Program-made: the position numbers and the translations under genes
From: Candidatus Omnitrophota bacterium
Lineage (GTDB): Bacteria; Omnitrophota; Gorgyraeia; Gorgyraeales; Gorgyraeaceae
DNA length: 64,000 nucleotides
Direction: 5' to 3'
NCBI GenBank assembly: GCA_041653835.1
Contig: JBAZEP010000002.1
Coordinates: forward strand, 19,061-83,060
Shown here: in pieces, positions 7,770 to 64,000 of the stretch
Layout of the letters: each line of letters starts with the position of its first letter
How positions within the stretch are numbered: position 1 is the first letter of the stretch
Notes under the pieces: model-generated
The model's input: only the letters and a program-made list of their open reading frames with translations
Database searches by the model: none
Told to the model about the DNA's origin: nothing

Positions 7770-7963
7770 CCTCCGGCAGGCTATGGCCGTTCGGCACAGA
7801 GAGTGTTTCGCCGTGCGCTACGGTTTACGGCTCGTTTTTTATACTGAAGGTAGTCTTGACAGTATAAAAAACTTCGCCGTAATCCCTTGCGCACTTATAT
7901 TCAAAAGAACTTGTCCTATGCCGAAACCTCTCAAATGTGCCTCAGGCCCTAGCCTGCCGGAGG
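7770..7963. repeat. Long-hairpin structured element, copy A (inverted relative to copy B at 27718-27903)
   Basis: Outer 19 bp inverted repeat cctccggcaggctatggcc/ggccctagcctgccggagg; about 120 bp core about 90% identical to rc of 27770-27890; core is itself an imperfect hairpin with loop tcaagactRccttc. Confidence 0.7.
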
Positions 7964-8060
7964 CGTAAAAAAGCCTTTACATATATCTCTAAGTTTACAT
8001 TTATGATATTGTCTTAAATGTGGACTTGGACTGCGTATCTTACATTGCAAGTATTACAAC

Positions 8061-27717: not shown

Positions 27718-27903
27718 GAGCCAGGTTGGGACATAAGGCACATTAGAAAAATTTCGGCATAATTTATTTTTTATTCTGCTAAGTGCGCAAGGAATTACGG
27801 CGAAGTTTTTATACCGTCAAGACTGCCTTCGGTATAAAAAATGAGCCGTAAACCGTAGCGCACGGCGAAATTATTTCAGTGCCGAATGGCCCCAACCTGG
27901 CTC
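27718..27903. repeat. Long-hairpin structured element, copy B (inverted relative to copy A)
   Basis: Outer inverted repeat gagccaggttggg/cccaacctggctc; core matches rc of 7800-7910 at about 90% with a compensatory C-G vs T-A stem change. Confidence 0.7.
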
Positions 27904-30707: not shown

Positions 30708-30758
30708 TACCTTCTCCTCTAATGTTACATTTCAGTAGGGGCACGGCATGCCGTGCCC

Positions 30759-32027
30759 CTACGATAAGCGGCTTATGATTGATGCAAAGACCGTAGCGGT
30801 ATCCACGAGACTGCTGATATATACAAACTCATCATCGCTGTGCCATTTTTCCCCGCCTGACGCGCTGTAACCCAGGGCAGGCACGCCTTTCCACATGAAG
30901 TACCGCATGTCAGTAGCGCCTGGCATTACGCTGAACTCTGTTTTTTTGCCTGTCACAGATTCCACGGCATCCGCCGCTATTTTGAAAAACGCGCTATCCT
31001 TCCCTGACACAACAGGCCCTTCCTGCGAAACAAATTTTATTCCGGCTTTCGAATCCCTGTATTTCGCGTTGAATTTTTTTATCACACCTTCTATTTCCCT
31101 TCTCGCTGTTTTTATATCTTCCTCGGGTATCAGGCGCCGGTCTATGCTGAATTTTACAACGCCCGGAACCACGTTTACCTTTACGCCCCCTTCCATGAGC
31201 CCACCCATGACAAAAGTCGGGCTTTTTGAAACAACGTCCCGCATATTATACCGCGTCCTCCTTCTTACTATCTTGCTTTTCAATTTTTCCAGTTCATTCA
31301 CCAGCTTGTTCATTCTCTCGAAAGAGTTTACCCCTTTATGAGGCGTAGAGCCATGTGCTGACTTGCCTTTGATCTCCACCTCCGCCCATAAAACGCCTTT
31401 ATTCCCTATCGAGATACAATGCCCCGAATAACCTTCGCTCATCGCGTAATCCGCTTTTACTAACCCTCTTTCCACCAGGTACCCGAGCCCTGTCCTCCCG
31501 CCTATCTCCTCGTCAGGCGTAAAAGAAAGCTGTATGTTTACTCTTAGCTTTATGCCGCGCTCTTTCAACGCCCTTAACGCGAACAATACGCTCGCGATGT
31601 TCCCCTTCATGTCTTCGGAACCGCGGCCATAGACCCTGTTGCCTTCCACTGTAGCCTTAAACGGCTCGCGCTTCCATTTATCTGTCGCCGGCACCACGTC
31701 ATAATGGGAGTTTATATGAAAAATTTTCTTTGCCCCGGCGTTAAGATCAGCTACCAGGCTTACTCTTTTCGAGCCGCCTTTTACCCCGAATTTTTCGAGC
31801 ACATATCCGGGCGTGGCATATTTCCTGGTAACGAATCCCAGCTTTTTACATTCTTTTTCGAGAAGCTCCGCCATCTTTTCGTAATTCTCCCCGGGCGGGT
31901 TCACTGTGCGTATCTCGATAAGCCTTGAAAGCAGATTTACCGCGTATTTTTTATTCTTATTTAAATAATCCGCTATATCACATACCATGCCGCTCTCCTT
32001 TTCATCTCTCCAGCTCATTTGCCTCAT
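30759..32027 (-). CDS. M20 family metallopeptidase (ArgE/DapE-like)
   Basis: M20 metal-binding motifs (HYDVVP, GSEDMKG, dimerisation domain). Confidence 0.75.
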   Translation of the reverse strand: MRQMSWRDEKESGMVCDIADYLNKNKKYAVNLLSRLIEIRTVNPPGENYEKMAELLEKECKKLGFVTRKYATPGYVLEKFGVKGGSKRVSLVADLNAGAKKIFHINSHYDVVPATDKWKREPFKATVEGNRVYGRGSEDMKGNIASVLFALRALKERGIKLRVNIQLSFTPDEEIGGRTGLGYLVERGLVKADYAMSEGYSGHCISIGNKGVLWAEVEIKGKSAHGSTPHKGVNSFERMNKLVNELEKLKSKIVRRRTRYNMRDVVSKSPTFVMGGLMEGGVKVNVVPGVVKFSIDRRLIPEEDIKTARREIEGVIKKFNAKYRDSKAGIKFVSQEGPVVSGKDSAFFKIAADAVESVTGKKTEFSVMPGATDMRYFMWKGVPALGYSASGGEKWHSDDEFVYISSLVDTATVFASIISRLS

Positions 32028-37628: not shown

Positions 37629-37632
37629 ATCC

Positions 37633-37670
37633 TAAGGTAAGATTTCTGACAGTGTCAAAAATCTTACCTA
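37633..37670. repeat. REP-like intercistronic palindrome (taaggtaagatttcTGACAgTGTCAaaaatcttaccta)
   Basis: 17/18 bp inverted arms around TGACA-g-TGTCA; fills the dapL-stop/folK-start gap. Confidence 0.65.
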
Positions 37671-38834
37671 AAGCACCTTTTTCAGCCTCTCGACCGCTTC
37701 CCGTATCCTTTCTTTGGAAACAGTGAGCGCGAACCTTACATAGCCTTCGCCGTTCTCCCCGAAACCTATACCCGGGGTAATTATGATGTCCGCGCCATCG
37801 AGAACCGACTGGGCGAATTTAATGGATGATCTTTGCTTGCCTGGCAATTTCGCCCATACATAGAATGTGGCTTTTGGTTTCTTTACCGGCCATCCCAATC
37901 TATTCAATCCGTCCACCAGCTCATCCCTTCTTTCCTGGTACACATTATTCATTCTCTCGAGATGCTTATCCGCTATATCAAGGGCGGTGACCCCCGCGGC
38001 CTGGACAGCGTTAAACACCCCGGAATCCACATTCGATTTTACCCTGGCTATGCCGCTTATGATCTTCTCGTTGCCGCAGGCAAAACCTACGCGCCAGCCT
38101 GTCATATTACAGGTTTTCGAAAGCGAATGGAATTCCACCCCTGTCTCCATGGCGCCGCTGGCTTTCAAAAAGCTATCAGGCCTGTAGCCATCGAACGCCA
38201 CCTCGGAATAAGCAGCGTCGGATGCTACCATGAGATTATATTTTTTGGCGAAAAGGACAACATCTTCAAAAAAACCTTTTTCACAGGTAGCGGCTGTAGG
38301 ATTATTGGGGTAGTTTATATAAATGACTTTCGCTTTTTTGAGCGCGGATTTTTTTATGCTGTTCAGGTCAGGCAGGAAGTTATTCTCTTCTTTTAAAGGC
38401 ATCAGGCAAGGTACGCCTCCCGCCAGTATAGTCCCGCCTTTATACGGAGGATAACACGGGTCAGGGACAAGTGAAATATCCCCGGGGTTAACGAACGCGA
38501 GCGGCATATGGCTTATGCCTTCTTTCGAACCTATGAGAGGCAGTATCTCTTTCTCCGGATCCAGGCTGACGCCGAACCTTTCCCTGTACCACGACGCGAT
38601 CCTCTCCCTGAAAACAGAATTGCCCTGGTCCAGAGGATAATGATGATTTTTCGGGTCCTGGACAGCTTTATAAAGAGATTCTATCACCTCTTTGGGCGTA
38701 GGTTCGTCAGGGTCTCCTATACCGAGATCTATAATGTCGCGGCCCTGAGCGGCCGCCTGTCTCTTTGCCTTATCTATTTCCACAAAAAGATAAGGAGGAA
38801 GCTTATTTAATCTTTTACTGAAATCAAAATTCAT
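37668..38834 (-). CDS. dapL: LL-diaminopimelate aminotransferase (class I aminotransferase, DapL-like)
   Basis: N-terminal LNKLPPYLFVEIDKAKRQ motif typical of DapL; PLP-lysine region; sits in the dap/lys cluster. Confidence 0.7.
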   Translation of the reverse strand: MNFDFSKRLNKLPPYLFVEIDKAKRQAAAQGRDIIDLGIGDPDEPTPKEVIESLYKAVQDPKNHHYPLDQGNSVFRERIASWYRERFGVSLDPEKEILPLIGSKEGISHMPLAFVNPGDISLVPDPCYPPYKGGTILAGGVPCLMPLKEENNFLPDLNSIKKSALKKAKVIYINYPNNPTAATCEKGFFEDVVLFAKKYNLMVASDAAYSEVAFDGYRPDSFLKASGAMETGVEFHSLSKTCNMTGWRVGFACGNEKIISGIARVKSNVDSGVFNAVQAAGVTALDIADKHLERMNNVYQERRDELVDGLNRLGWPVKKPKATFYVWAKLPGKQRSSIKFAQSVLDGADIIITPGIGFGENGEGYVRFALTVSKERIREAVERLKKVL

Positions 38835-39579: not shown

Positions 39580-39591
39580 ATAATGTCTCCC

Positions 39592-39630
39592 TAAGGGAAC
39601 ATTTTTGACAATGTCATAAATGTTCCCTTA
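39592..39630. repeat. REP-like intercistronic palindrome (taagggaacattttTGACAaTGTCAtaaatgttccctta)
   Basis: 18/19 bp inverted arms; runs from the dapA stop to 12 nt before the dapB start. Confidence 0.65.
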
Positions 39631-39631
39631 T

Positions 39632-40504
39632 TTATAGTAAGCCGTAGTCTTTGAGGGCTTTTTTTAGTTTCTCAAGATTTACATCCGACATCGGGCATAA
39701 AGGCAGTCTCATGCCAGGCTCTATCATGCCCATAAGGCTCATAGCTGTCTTGACAGGTATCGGATTGGTTTCTAAAAATACCGCCCTTACCAAAGGCAAA
39801 AGTTTGTAGTGCAATTTTCTCGCGCCTTCCAGGTCACCTTTTTTGAATTTCGCCACCATGTCTGATACATCTTTCGGAACGATATTATTCACTACCGAGA
39901 TAACCCCTGTCCCGCCGATCGCGAGCAAAGGCAGTGTAAGGGCGTCATCGCCTGATATGAGATAAAATTTATCGCCGCACAAATAACGTATCCTGGACAT
40001 CTGTTCCAGATTTCCGCTGGATTCTTTGACGCCCGCTATATTTTTCACTTTGCTCATCCTGGCCATTGTCTCGGGCTCTATGTTCACTCCTGTCCTCGAG
40101 GCTATATTATAAACGATCATAGGAAGGTCCACTTCCTCCGCTATCGTCTTGAAATGCAGATAAAGCCCTTCCTGGGTAGGTTTATTATAATACGGCGAGA
40201 CCTGAAGCGTAGCGTCTGCCCCGGCTTTTTTAGCGTGCTTAGTGAGCATCAATGCCTCGGCGGTGCTGTTCGAACCTGTCCCGGCTATTACGGCTATTTT
40301 TCCCGCCGCGGCCTCTATCACGATCTCAATAACCCTTTCATGCTCTTCGTAGGAAAGCGTGGCTGATTCACCTGTTGTGCCGCATGGCACAATACCGCTG
40401 GTCCCGTTTTTTATATGGAACTCCACCAGCTCCGCTAATTTTTTTTCATCTACACGGTCTTTTTTAAACGGCGTCACCAAAGCCGTCATCGCGCCTTCAA
40501 ACAT
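39632..40504 (-). CDS. dapA: 4-hydroxy-tetrahydrodipicolinate synthase DapA
   Basis: TPF..D..VD, GTTGES and active-site Lys motifs. Confidence 0.9.
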   Translation of the reverse strand: MFEGAMTALVTPFKKDRVDEKKLAELVEFHIKNGTSGIVPCGTTGESATLSYEEHERVIEIVIEAAAGKIAVIAGTGSNSTAEALMLTKHAKKAGADATLQVSPYYNKPTQEGLYLHFKTIAEEVDLPMIVYNIASRTGVNIEPETMARMSKVKNIAGVKESSGNLEQMSRIRYLCGDKFYLISGDDALTLPLLAIGGTGVISVVNNIVPKDVSDMVAKFKKGDLEGARKLHYKLLPLVRAVFLETNPIPVKTAMSLMGMIEPGMRLPLCPMSDVNLEKLKKALKDYGLL

Positions 40505-50411: not shown

Positions 50412-50471
50412 TATAAACAAAAACGCCTATCCTGTCAATTGATTTCTCGTCGGAAAATGACCGGATAGGCG
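50412..50471 (-). terminator. Intrinsic terminator after rpsI (minus strand)
   Basis: acgcctatcc ... ggataggcgt 10 bp stem (30 nt loop) followed on the minus strand by TTTTTGTTTATAATTTT. Confidence 0.55.
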
Positions 50472-50529
50472 TCTATGTTTATCCGGCTCCGCGTACCGCC
50501 GCAAGCGGCCCGCAAAGCCGATTATTGTT

Positions 50530-53423: not shown

Positions 53424-53464
53424 CCCAAACCCGCATTGGGGATTTTCCTCAATGCGGGTTTGGG
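53424..53464. promoter_or_regulatory. Intercistronic GC-rich hairpin (14 bp perfect stem) without U-tract
   Basis: ccaaacccgcattg-gggattttcctc-caatgcgggtttgg. Confidence 0.5.
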
Positions 53465-55764: not shown

Positions 55765-55780
55765 ACGTCGCCTTATTAAT

Positions 55781-55819
55781 CTAATGTTACATTTTGACAC
55801 TGTCAGAGTGTAACATTAG
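55781..55819. repeat. REP-like intercistronic palindrome (ctaatgttacatttTGACAcTGTCAgagtgtaacattag)
   Basis: Inverted arms around TGACA-c-TGTCA between the leuB stop and the asd start. Confidence 0.6.
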
Positions 55820-55825
55820 TCAGTG

Positions 55826-63811: not shown

Positions 63812-63829
63812 CCCGCCTCTCTTTTCTCC

Positions 63830-63869
63830 TAAGGGAACATTTGTGACAGTGTCACAAATGTTCCCTTAG
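63830..63869. repeat. REP-like intercistronic palindrome (taagggaacatttgTGACAgTGTCAcaaatgttcccttag)
   Basis: 19 bp perfect inverted arms; overlaps the SBP stop codon and ends 19 nt before the oppB-like start. Confidence 0.7.
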
Positions 63870-64000
63870 CGGGTGTAACGTTGTTCCGCGCGGGGCACAA
63901 ACCATTTGATGAAATTATGGCCTATGCCTGCGGGCGCTACTTCAATACCTTTGAAACGGCTGTTCAATATAGGAAGCGCGTCCGGAACGTACAAAAACAA
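63866..64000 (-). CDS. Peptide ABC transporter substrate-binding protein (family 5), C-terminal fragment; partial at window edge
   Basis: C-terminus ...KGIEVAPAGIGHNFIKWFVPRAEQRYTR* immediately upstream of the permease genes. Confidence 0.6.
   Translation of the reverse strand: MFLYVPDALPILNSRFKGIEVAPAGIGHNFIKWFVPRAEQRYTR

Follow-up and report, generated by a model that had tools for sequence, protein, structure and literature searches.

Five short palindromes in the window, by which we mean the whole stretch of 64,000 nucleotides analyzed here, are most probably (at odds of roughly two to one) copies of a dispersed, untagged REP-like palindromic repeat belonging to a sub-clade of Candidatus Omnitrophota. 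That they represent a real dispersed repeat family is close to certain, and our verdict is that the family is a new one of the untagged REP-like kind, in a phylum where we found none described. With much the same confidence as the main reading, we take its primary nature to be that of a self-propagating or converting DNA repeat rather than of a selected RNA signal.

A simple longest-ORF gene call shows that the window is 93% coding and places all 62 credible genes on the minus strand; many of the gene junctions across the 64 kb are 1-10 nt long or overlapping. The original prediction listed four clear members and a degenerate fifth, and the same five sites, with nothing else, were returned by a covariance model (R1) built from 74 non-identical copies taken from the window's organism, two close relatives and metagenome contigs; with filters off, the next match over the window had an E-value of 0.2. 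The copy at 37633-37671 (R1 37631-37673, 52.2 bits) occupies essentially all of the 39-nt dapL-folK gap, with the dapL stop codon TAG (37668-37670) inside its arm and the folK ATG (37628) only 4 nt beyond the element, and its RNA is predicted to fold at -22.9 kcal/mol (z -4.9). The dapA-dapB gap holds the copy at 39592-39630 (TAAGGGAACATTTTTGACAATGTCATAAATGTTCCCTTA; R1 39590-39632, 56.5 bits), for which the dapA stop lies 1 nt upstream, the Shine-Dalgarno sequence AGGGAG adjoins the 3' arm on the sense (minus) strand and the predicted RNA fold is -25 kcal/mol; an identical copy is present in L085, one of the 96 metagenome loci discussed below, which derives from the window's own organism. Between leuB and asd, the copy at 55781-55819 (R1 55780-55820, 41.0 bits) is of a short-arm subtype in which each arm is 1 nt shorter between ACA and TGACA (AATGTTACATTT-TGACA), and its GTTACA arm type is also found at other gaps in the relatives L049 and L054. 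The copy at 63829-63869 (R1 63828-63870, 55.6 bits), located 5' of an oppB/nikB-like permease gene, is a perfect 20+1+20 palindrome of the same arm type as the dapA-dapB copy, with a predicted RNA fold of -36.2 kcal/mol (z -6.9); the gene on its 5' side runs past the window end and was assigned no name. The decayed fifth copy, at 7988-8030 and 30 nt 3' of the mtaB stop (R1 37.2 bits, E 9e-8), keeps a near-consensus left arm (TAAGTTTACATTTATGATA), carries four arm mismatches and folds weakly as RNA (-9.8 kcal/mol). Of the names originally given to the flanking genes, dapL, folK, dapA, dapB, leuB, asd, oppB-like and MiaB-like (mtaB) were confirmed.

The palindrome center TGACANTGTCA has five exact matches in the window compared with 0.01 expected from dinucleotide-preserving shuffles, and all five family members lie in the non-coding 7%. 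Four of these exact matches form the centers of 17-20 nt inverted repeats whose arms are one base apart. The fifth (19034, inside a coding sequence) has no outer arms and reaches only 13 bits with R1 (E 0.7), and was rejected as a member. The window also contains intergenic inverted repeats unrelated to the family, at 53424-53464, 109-138, 186-241, 424-474, 7834-7872, 50413-50482 and 27783-27863, some of which may be terminators; those at 186-241, 424-474, 53424-53464 and 7834-7872 entered the R1 list only at E-values of 0.2-9, and the remaining three were not in the list.

Across 90 distinct copies, complementarity between the arms extends to position 19 from the center and then drops to the random level, which defines a unit of 19 + 1 + 19 = 39 nt with a nearly perfect stem and a 3-nt loop. 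Its apex is near-invariant (ACAYTTNTGACANTGTCANAARTGT) and its apical half reads ACA-Y-TT-N-TGACA-N-TGTCA-N-AA-R-TGT; the apical 12 positions of each arm (ACA-Y-TT-N-TGACA) are almost invariant, ten of them being set by the search pattern, and do not differ in copies that were located independently, by DapL synteny. The basal seven positions are variable (for example CAACTTT, TAAGTTG, AGGGTTT, AAAGGTT and TAAGGGA) and covary with the opposite arm. Of the cells in the 74-sequence alignment, 95.3% pair, compared with 83.5% in shuffles and 30-42% in slid controls; double changes occur in 11 of 18 pairs, and the observed values were reached by none of 500 shuffles, in keeping with the earlier remark that the outer arms differ among copies yet remain complementary. 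Positions 6, 13, 16 and 19 each display three or four Watson-Crick pair types, and position 6 is a hotspot, unpaired or T·G/C·A in about half of the copies. The subtype in which both arms are one base shorter comprises the leuB-asd copy of the window and copies in L049. When the flanks of 110 copies were examined, a GTAG tag was found at two and a CGTC tag at two, and from position 20 outward no conserved motif was detected besides Shine-Dalgarno-like purines on the 3' side. A dispersed short palindrome that has no terminal tag and undergoes compensatory change answers to the description of an untagged REP-like stem-loop repeat.

Placement relative to genes was evaluated with 65 copies that have clear co-directional neighbors. 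The median distance from the end of the stop codon to the start of the element is 0 nt; 59 of the 65 copies overlap the stop or start no more than 15 nt from it, consistent with the proposal that the elements begin at or near the upstream stop. The stop codon overlaps the element in 29 cases, and in approximately 18 it is the element's own TAA or TGA. On the other side, the downstream start codon follows the element at a median of 18 nt. The claim that the copies end 12-20 nt before the ribosome binding site did not hold: in the window, 4-17 nt separate the end of a copy from the downstream start codon, and the Shine-Dalgarno sequence adjoins the 3' arm, just outside the predicted RNA stem. 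Co-directional flanking genes, also claimed, are indeed the rule, but this is not special to the family, as 95% of element-holding junctions are co-directional versus 92% of all junctions in these sequences. With a coding density of 93% and 92% of junctions co-directional, placement after stop codons is to be expected.

At the RNA level, sense-strand folds of the window copies lie between -16 and -36 kcal/mol, and three of them have z-scores between -4.9 and -6.9. The role in mRNA stabilization and differential expression that was originally proposed gained no support from mismatches on the sense strand, which show no bias between G·U and C·A (20 versus 18, p 0.87) and, since the two are equally common, give no sign of RNA-level selection. 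In E. coli, REPs near stop codons affect mRNA stability and translation, and ribosomes stall at stops that lie within 15 nt of a REP (trans-translation). Comparable RNA effects, such as a 3' exonuclease barrier, RNase III-type cleavage of the ~19-bp stem or ribosome stalling, would be plausible for the Omnitrophota elements by this analogy, and they look like consequences of the family rather than the reason for its existence.

To define the extent of the family, metagenome contigs were scanned with the pattern ACANTTNTGACANTGTCANAANTGT, which specifies 20 bases and has an estimated chance expectation of less than one match. The scan yielded 96 further loci that have in common a 25-nt apex and similar arms; in 93 of them the arms are at least 14 nt long, mostly 17-25 nt, and in the other three they are shorter. 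The window comes from a Candidatus Omnitrophota bacterium, and the hosts point to this one phylum. An exact look-up of the window DapL gave no record. Metagenome relatives of this protein appear at 99% and then at 84-66% identity, and every named match is Candidatus Omnitrophota or Omnitrophica; likewise, the MATE transporter encoded at the independent locus L134 (a 200-kb contig) has only Omnitrophota-named relatives. A scan of a genome collection with ATTTNTGACANTGTCANAAAT, a pattern that proved too narrow because it was aimed at the ATTT type whereas the main family type is ACACTT, gave 48 scattered single matches in many phyla, one of them in a Candidatus Omnitrophota MAG (L037). Long perfect hairpins containing TTTTTGACANTGTCAAAAA occur singly in this collection (L003, L024, L027, L031 and L005), in Ruminococcaceae, Mucilaginibacter, Bacteroidaceae, Elusimicrobiaceae and Onthovivens, and some of them, such as those of L003 and L027, are bordered by A/T runs like bidirectional terminators; we judged these to be ordinary hairpins that match a palindromic pattern by chance. 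Viral contigs gave no match to the family. Against Rfam 15, the only match of the window was a tRNA at gathering scores and a chance miRNA (E 0.28) in E-value mode, and a full-text literature search found no description of such repeats in Omnitrophota.

Copy density is five per 64 kb in the window and four to six per 21 kb in close relatives. Extrapolation from this density, as opposed to a count, would give approximately 100-300 copies per ~1-Mb genome and more in larger ones. Contigs carrying DapL relatives at 76%, 71% (Ca. Gorgyraea atricola) and 66% identity (L151-L153) keep the gene order, yet no family copies were found in the 21 kb available from each, where the dapA-dapB gaps measure 8-35 nt. 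In our favored reading the family is specific to a sub-clade of Candidatus Omnitrophota.

Comparison of orthologous junctions reveals copies being gained and lost at single gaps between a stop codon and a Shine-Dalgarno sequence. The dapL-folK junction contains an element (37-39 nt) in the window versus a gap of 2 nt (TTTAG-ATATG) in L049 and L054, and we read the window copy as an insertion because the orthologous gap is so short in both relatives. Conversely, argB-argD carries a copy in L049 versus a 1-nt gap in the window, and three further filled/empty pairs were found among the metagenome loci, with the empty sites in L095, L134 and L114. Certain gaps, namely dapA-dapB, M20-uvrA, argB-argD and lysA-dapF, are filled in several genomes.

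Copies are also homogenized within a genome, which generates genome-specific subtypes in either orientation. The sequence AAGTTGACACTCT is common to four of the six L049 copies and TAAGGGAACATTT to two window copies, while five L052 copies have in common an asymmetric, partly unpaired apex (TAAGTTTACACTTCAAGCAATACTCGTTTTGTAAACTTA) that forms a 3x3 internal loop, and these occur in both orientations relative to genes and transcription. L049, L054 and L052 hold other subtypes in the dapA-dapB gap, which, given that subtypes are genome-specific, displays four subtypes in four genomes. Two pairs of orthologous copies were compared between L104 and L112 (L104 10553-10591 with L112 3063-3105, and L104 12041-12079 with L112 4551-4591) within aligned 141-nt regions that are ~96% and ~88% identical. 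One comparison uncovered a paired T-A to C-G change in the supposedly invariant core, and a second junction a 1-nt indel present symmetrically in both arms; as sequence changes, these imply either arm-to-arm correction or copy replacement. Two further arrangements hint at mobility. L101 carries two copies of different arm subtypes in tandem (2464-2535) where its relative L070 has one, and in the dapA-dapB gap of L052 (9143-9242) a G+C-rich hairpin (CCCCGCACC...GGTGCGGGG) interrupts a family copy close to the copy's 5' arm, one hairpin element having inserted into another. Taken together, the filled and empty gaps, the subtypes, the two orientations, the tandem and nested copies and the absence from distant relatives describe a dispersed and, to judge from these sequence comparisons, probably mobile repeat.

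The mechanism that we propose has the repeat spreading at the DNA level, either as a small non-autonomous element or through conversion between copies, with the apex probably being the part recognized by the copying enzyme. Templated repair from one arm to the other, selection for the hairpin, or the two together would keep the palindrome perfect. As it lands inside operons the element is co-transcribed, and the resulting RNA would form a hairpin of 18-19 bp, beginning at the upstream stop or no more than 15 nt from it and reaching to the downstream Shine-Dalgarno sequence. From this placement and the analogy with enterobacterial REPs, the hairpin may modulate 3' decay, processing or termination-coupled translation, such modulation being presumably a consequence of location rather than a demonstrated purpose.

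Some observations weigh against a DNA repeat. The same few gaps are occupied across genomes, and could hold ancient copies kept by selection for the hairpin; no mobilizing enzyme was found in the window and ~0.6 Mb of related loci; and the filled/empty pairs show no clear target-site duplication. For the second of these, six-frame ORFs from the window and ~0.6 Mb of loci, which are partial genomes, contained no match to E. coli RayT (phmmer, E<=10), and no ORF in the same sequences matched an HUH/Y regular expression. Because RAYTs are single-copy genes and the search was confined to partial genomes, the RayT result does not amount to a genome-wide negative. Clustering of neighboring genes in ~0.6 Mb of sequence revealed no recurrent gene family adjoining the copies, and one recurrent neighbor cluster considered as a transposase candidate proved to consist of aminotransferases. 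As for duplications, TTAG(G) at dapL-folK is suggestive only, and none was consistent across the filled/empty pairs and terminal positions.

We weighed the DNA-repeat reading against an intercistronic RNA element under selection, serving as a barrier to 3'-5' exonuclease, as an RNase III-type processing site or as a ribosome-stalling or translational-coupling hairpin, in which case repetition would reflect recruitment at many operon junctions. Such an element would account for the stable hairpins, for the tight placement between stop and Shine-Dalgarno sequence, for compensatory changes even among orthologous copies, and for junctions that are filled in several genomes or carry another hairpin type where the family is missing, as with the GTAG hairpins at M20-uvrA in the window and at dapL-folK in L052. 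The precedent of the E. coli REPs mentioned above points the same way (a general statement is given in PMC3733652). However, selection on the RNA is hard to reconcile with the equal frequencies of G·U and C·A mismatches, with a stem position (6) that is unpaired in about half of the copies, and with an asymmetric L052 subtype that is found in both orientations despite its internal loop. Orthologous junctions moreover do without a hairpin in near and far relatives, several of the gaps being just 1-10 nt, and the placement itself is explained by coding density and the prevalence of co-directional junctions. We therefore consider a selected RNA element unlikely, while giving it some weight. A different role for the conserved apex (TGACA-N-TGTCA with flanking TT/AA and ACA/TGT) would be that of a recognition module for a dedicated Omnitrophota protein, either a non-RAYT copying enzyme acting through single-stranded DNA or an RNA-binding or processing factor for which the hairpins mark cistron boundaries in these highly compact genomes with nearly all genes on one strand; this is a speculative idea to which we assign a low probability and, if true, it would represent a new repeat-protein partnership and not a passive REP look-alike.

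A binding site for a dimeric protein that reads TGACA/TGTCA half-sites had also been suggested; it could be an operator or a nucleoid-protein site, for instance one in lysine/DAP control. In favor of such a site, the core hardly varies and is symmetric on the two strands, and genes of the DAP pathway (dapA/dapB, dapL and asd) border three of the five window copies. Yet the flanking genes are functionally unrelated across the unbiased metagenome loci, where the neighbors include UDP-sugar dehydrogenase, CCA/polyA polymerase, riboflavin synthase, LpxA, thioredoxin reductase, LigA, V-ATPase B, a pterin-binding methyltransferase and Dxs, and on this diversity a lysine-regulon operator was rejected. 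The sites lie inside operons between stop and Shine-Dalgarno sequence and not at promoters, the outer arms vary and nevertheless stay complementary, for which an operator gives no reason, and close relatives have the same operons with no site at the same junction. A protein-binding site of this type is thus strongly disfavored. A promoter with TTGACA as its -35 box was likewise rejected, as no -10 box was seen by eye at a fixed distance. Finally, the copies might be unrelated, ordinary terminator-like hairpins that resemble each other by chance or through AT-rich composition, in line with the scattered single matches of the looser 18-base pattern in many phyla and the few of these (L003, L027) that combine long arms with A/T runs. 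Model scores of 37-56 bits with nothing in between, and the lack of a U-tract after the window copies on the sense strand, speak against this, and the window counts together with the 96 loci refute it, leaving it a negligible probability. The DNA-repeat reading is the one that we retain.

Among known systems, the best fit is to the untagged REP-like stem-loop sequences of Di Nocera et al. (PMC3733652), families of which are described from M. tuberculosis, D. radiodurans, Bordetella, Brucella and Cyanobacteria (PMC3733652). Like them, the Omnitrophota family consists of short dispersed palindromes with no conserved terminal motif and no known dedicated transposase; unlike them, it has an unrelated sequence, resides in another phylum and maintains an unusually strict apex across many genomes. 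The original prediction likened the copies to REP/BIME elements, and this likeness stands for dispersed extragenic palindromes that follow stop codons and fails for the missing GTAG or CGTC tag and for units that are almost always single. With classical REP/PU sequences the family has in common its many copies of a 20-40 nt extragenic palindrome (39 nt here), its location mostly 3' of ORFs, where it is co-transcribed and often touches or supplies the stop, and its genome-specific families. The GTAG-tagged REPs of Enterobacteria and Pseudomonas, which are mobilized by RAYTs, often supply the stop codon as well (PMC3733652). In contrast to classical REPs, the Omnitrophota repeat has no unpaired GTAG or CGTC, is conserved at the apex instead of the foot, and occurs as single copies and not as inverted pairs (REPIN/BIME), with one tandem pair (L101); its host lies outside the Proteobacteria, and no RAYT was seen in the window and ~0.6 Mb of related loci.

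The family resembles Correia/NEMIS and other MITEs in being small, non-autonomous, gene-adjoining and co-transcribed, in forming long hairpins and in its presence/absence polymorphism. In MITEs, however, which are 100-300 bp long, an internal segment is enclosed by terminal inverted repeats and the target duplication is defined (TA for Correia), whereas the Omnitrophota arms are just 1 nt apart and come with no isolated arms, full-length parent or consistent duplication. In 0.59 Mb, no isolated arm that could be the end of a full-length IS was found, each apparently solo arm proving to be a full palindrome with slight mutations. We rejected a MITE with a visible parent on the abutting arms and the lack of a fixed duplicated terminal dinucleotide, the filled/empty pairs being ambiguous in this respect. 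Integron attC sites are also imperfect palindromes between co-directional genes, but the Omnitrophota copies are flanked by core syntenic housekeeping genes and, on inspection of the sequence alone, have no GTTRRRY core.

These findings add an uncultivated PVC-related phylum to the range of small REP-like palindromic repeats and provide a clean untagged example, with no RAYT seen, in which a conserved apex is combined with symmetric arm change even between orthologous copies. In practical terms, the motif marks the lineage, which is of use in binning and strain typing this Omnitrophota clade, and gene callers should allow for stop codons and the last few protein residues that can come from the repeat. 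The natural pairs of filled and empty junctions offer, given RNA work, a ready-made test of how an intercistronic hairpin affects operon expression. Assembly fold-backs and contig breaks are also likely to stem from the family: in L099 (1-115) a palindrome with 57-nt arms runs to the contig end, most likely because the assembler folded back at the repeat, and on this reading family elements may break or distort metagenome assemblies.

A second family of palindromes, which does carry the GTAG tag, was observed in the same genomes. One of these (GTAGGGGCACGGCATGCCGTGCCCCTAC) occupies the gap between the M20-peptidase gene and uvrA in the window (30735-30762), and others are located at 11164-11191 in L052 and at about 3431-3469 in L103. 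In L052 a similar GTAG hairpin fills the dapL-folK gap, where its GTAG provides the dapL stop codon. These palindromes look like members of the classical GTAG-REP superfamily and, as they are separate from the TGACA family and present in the same genomes, REPs of the classical type may coexist with it.
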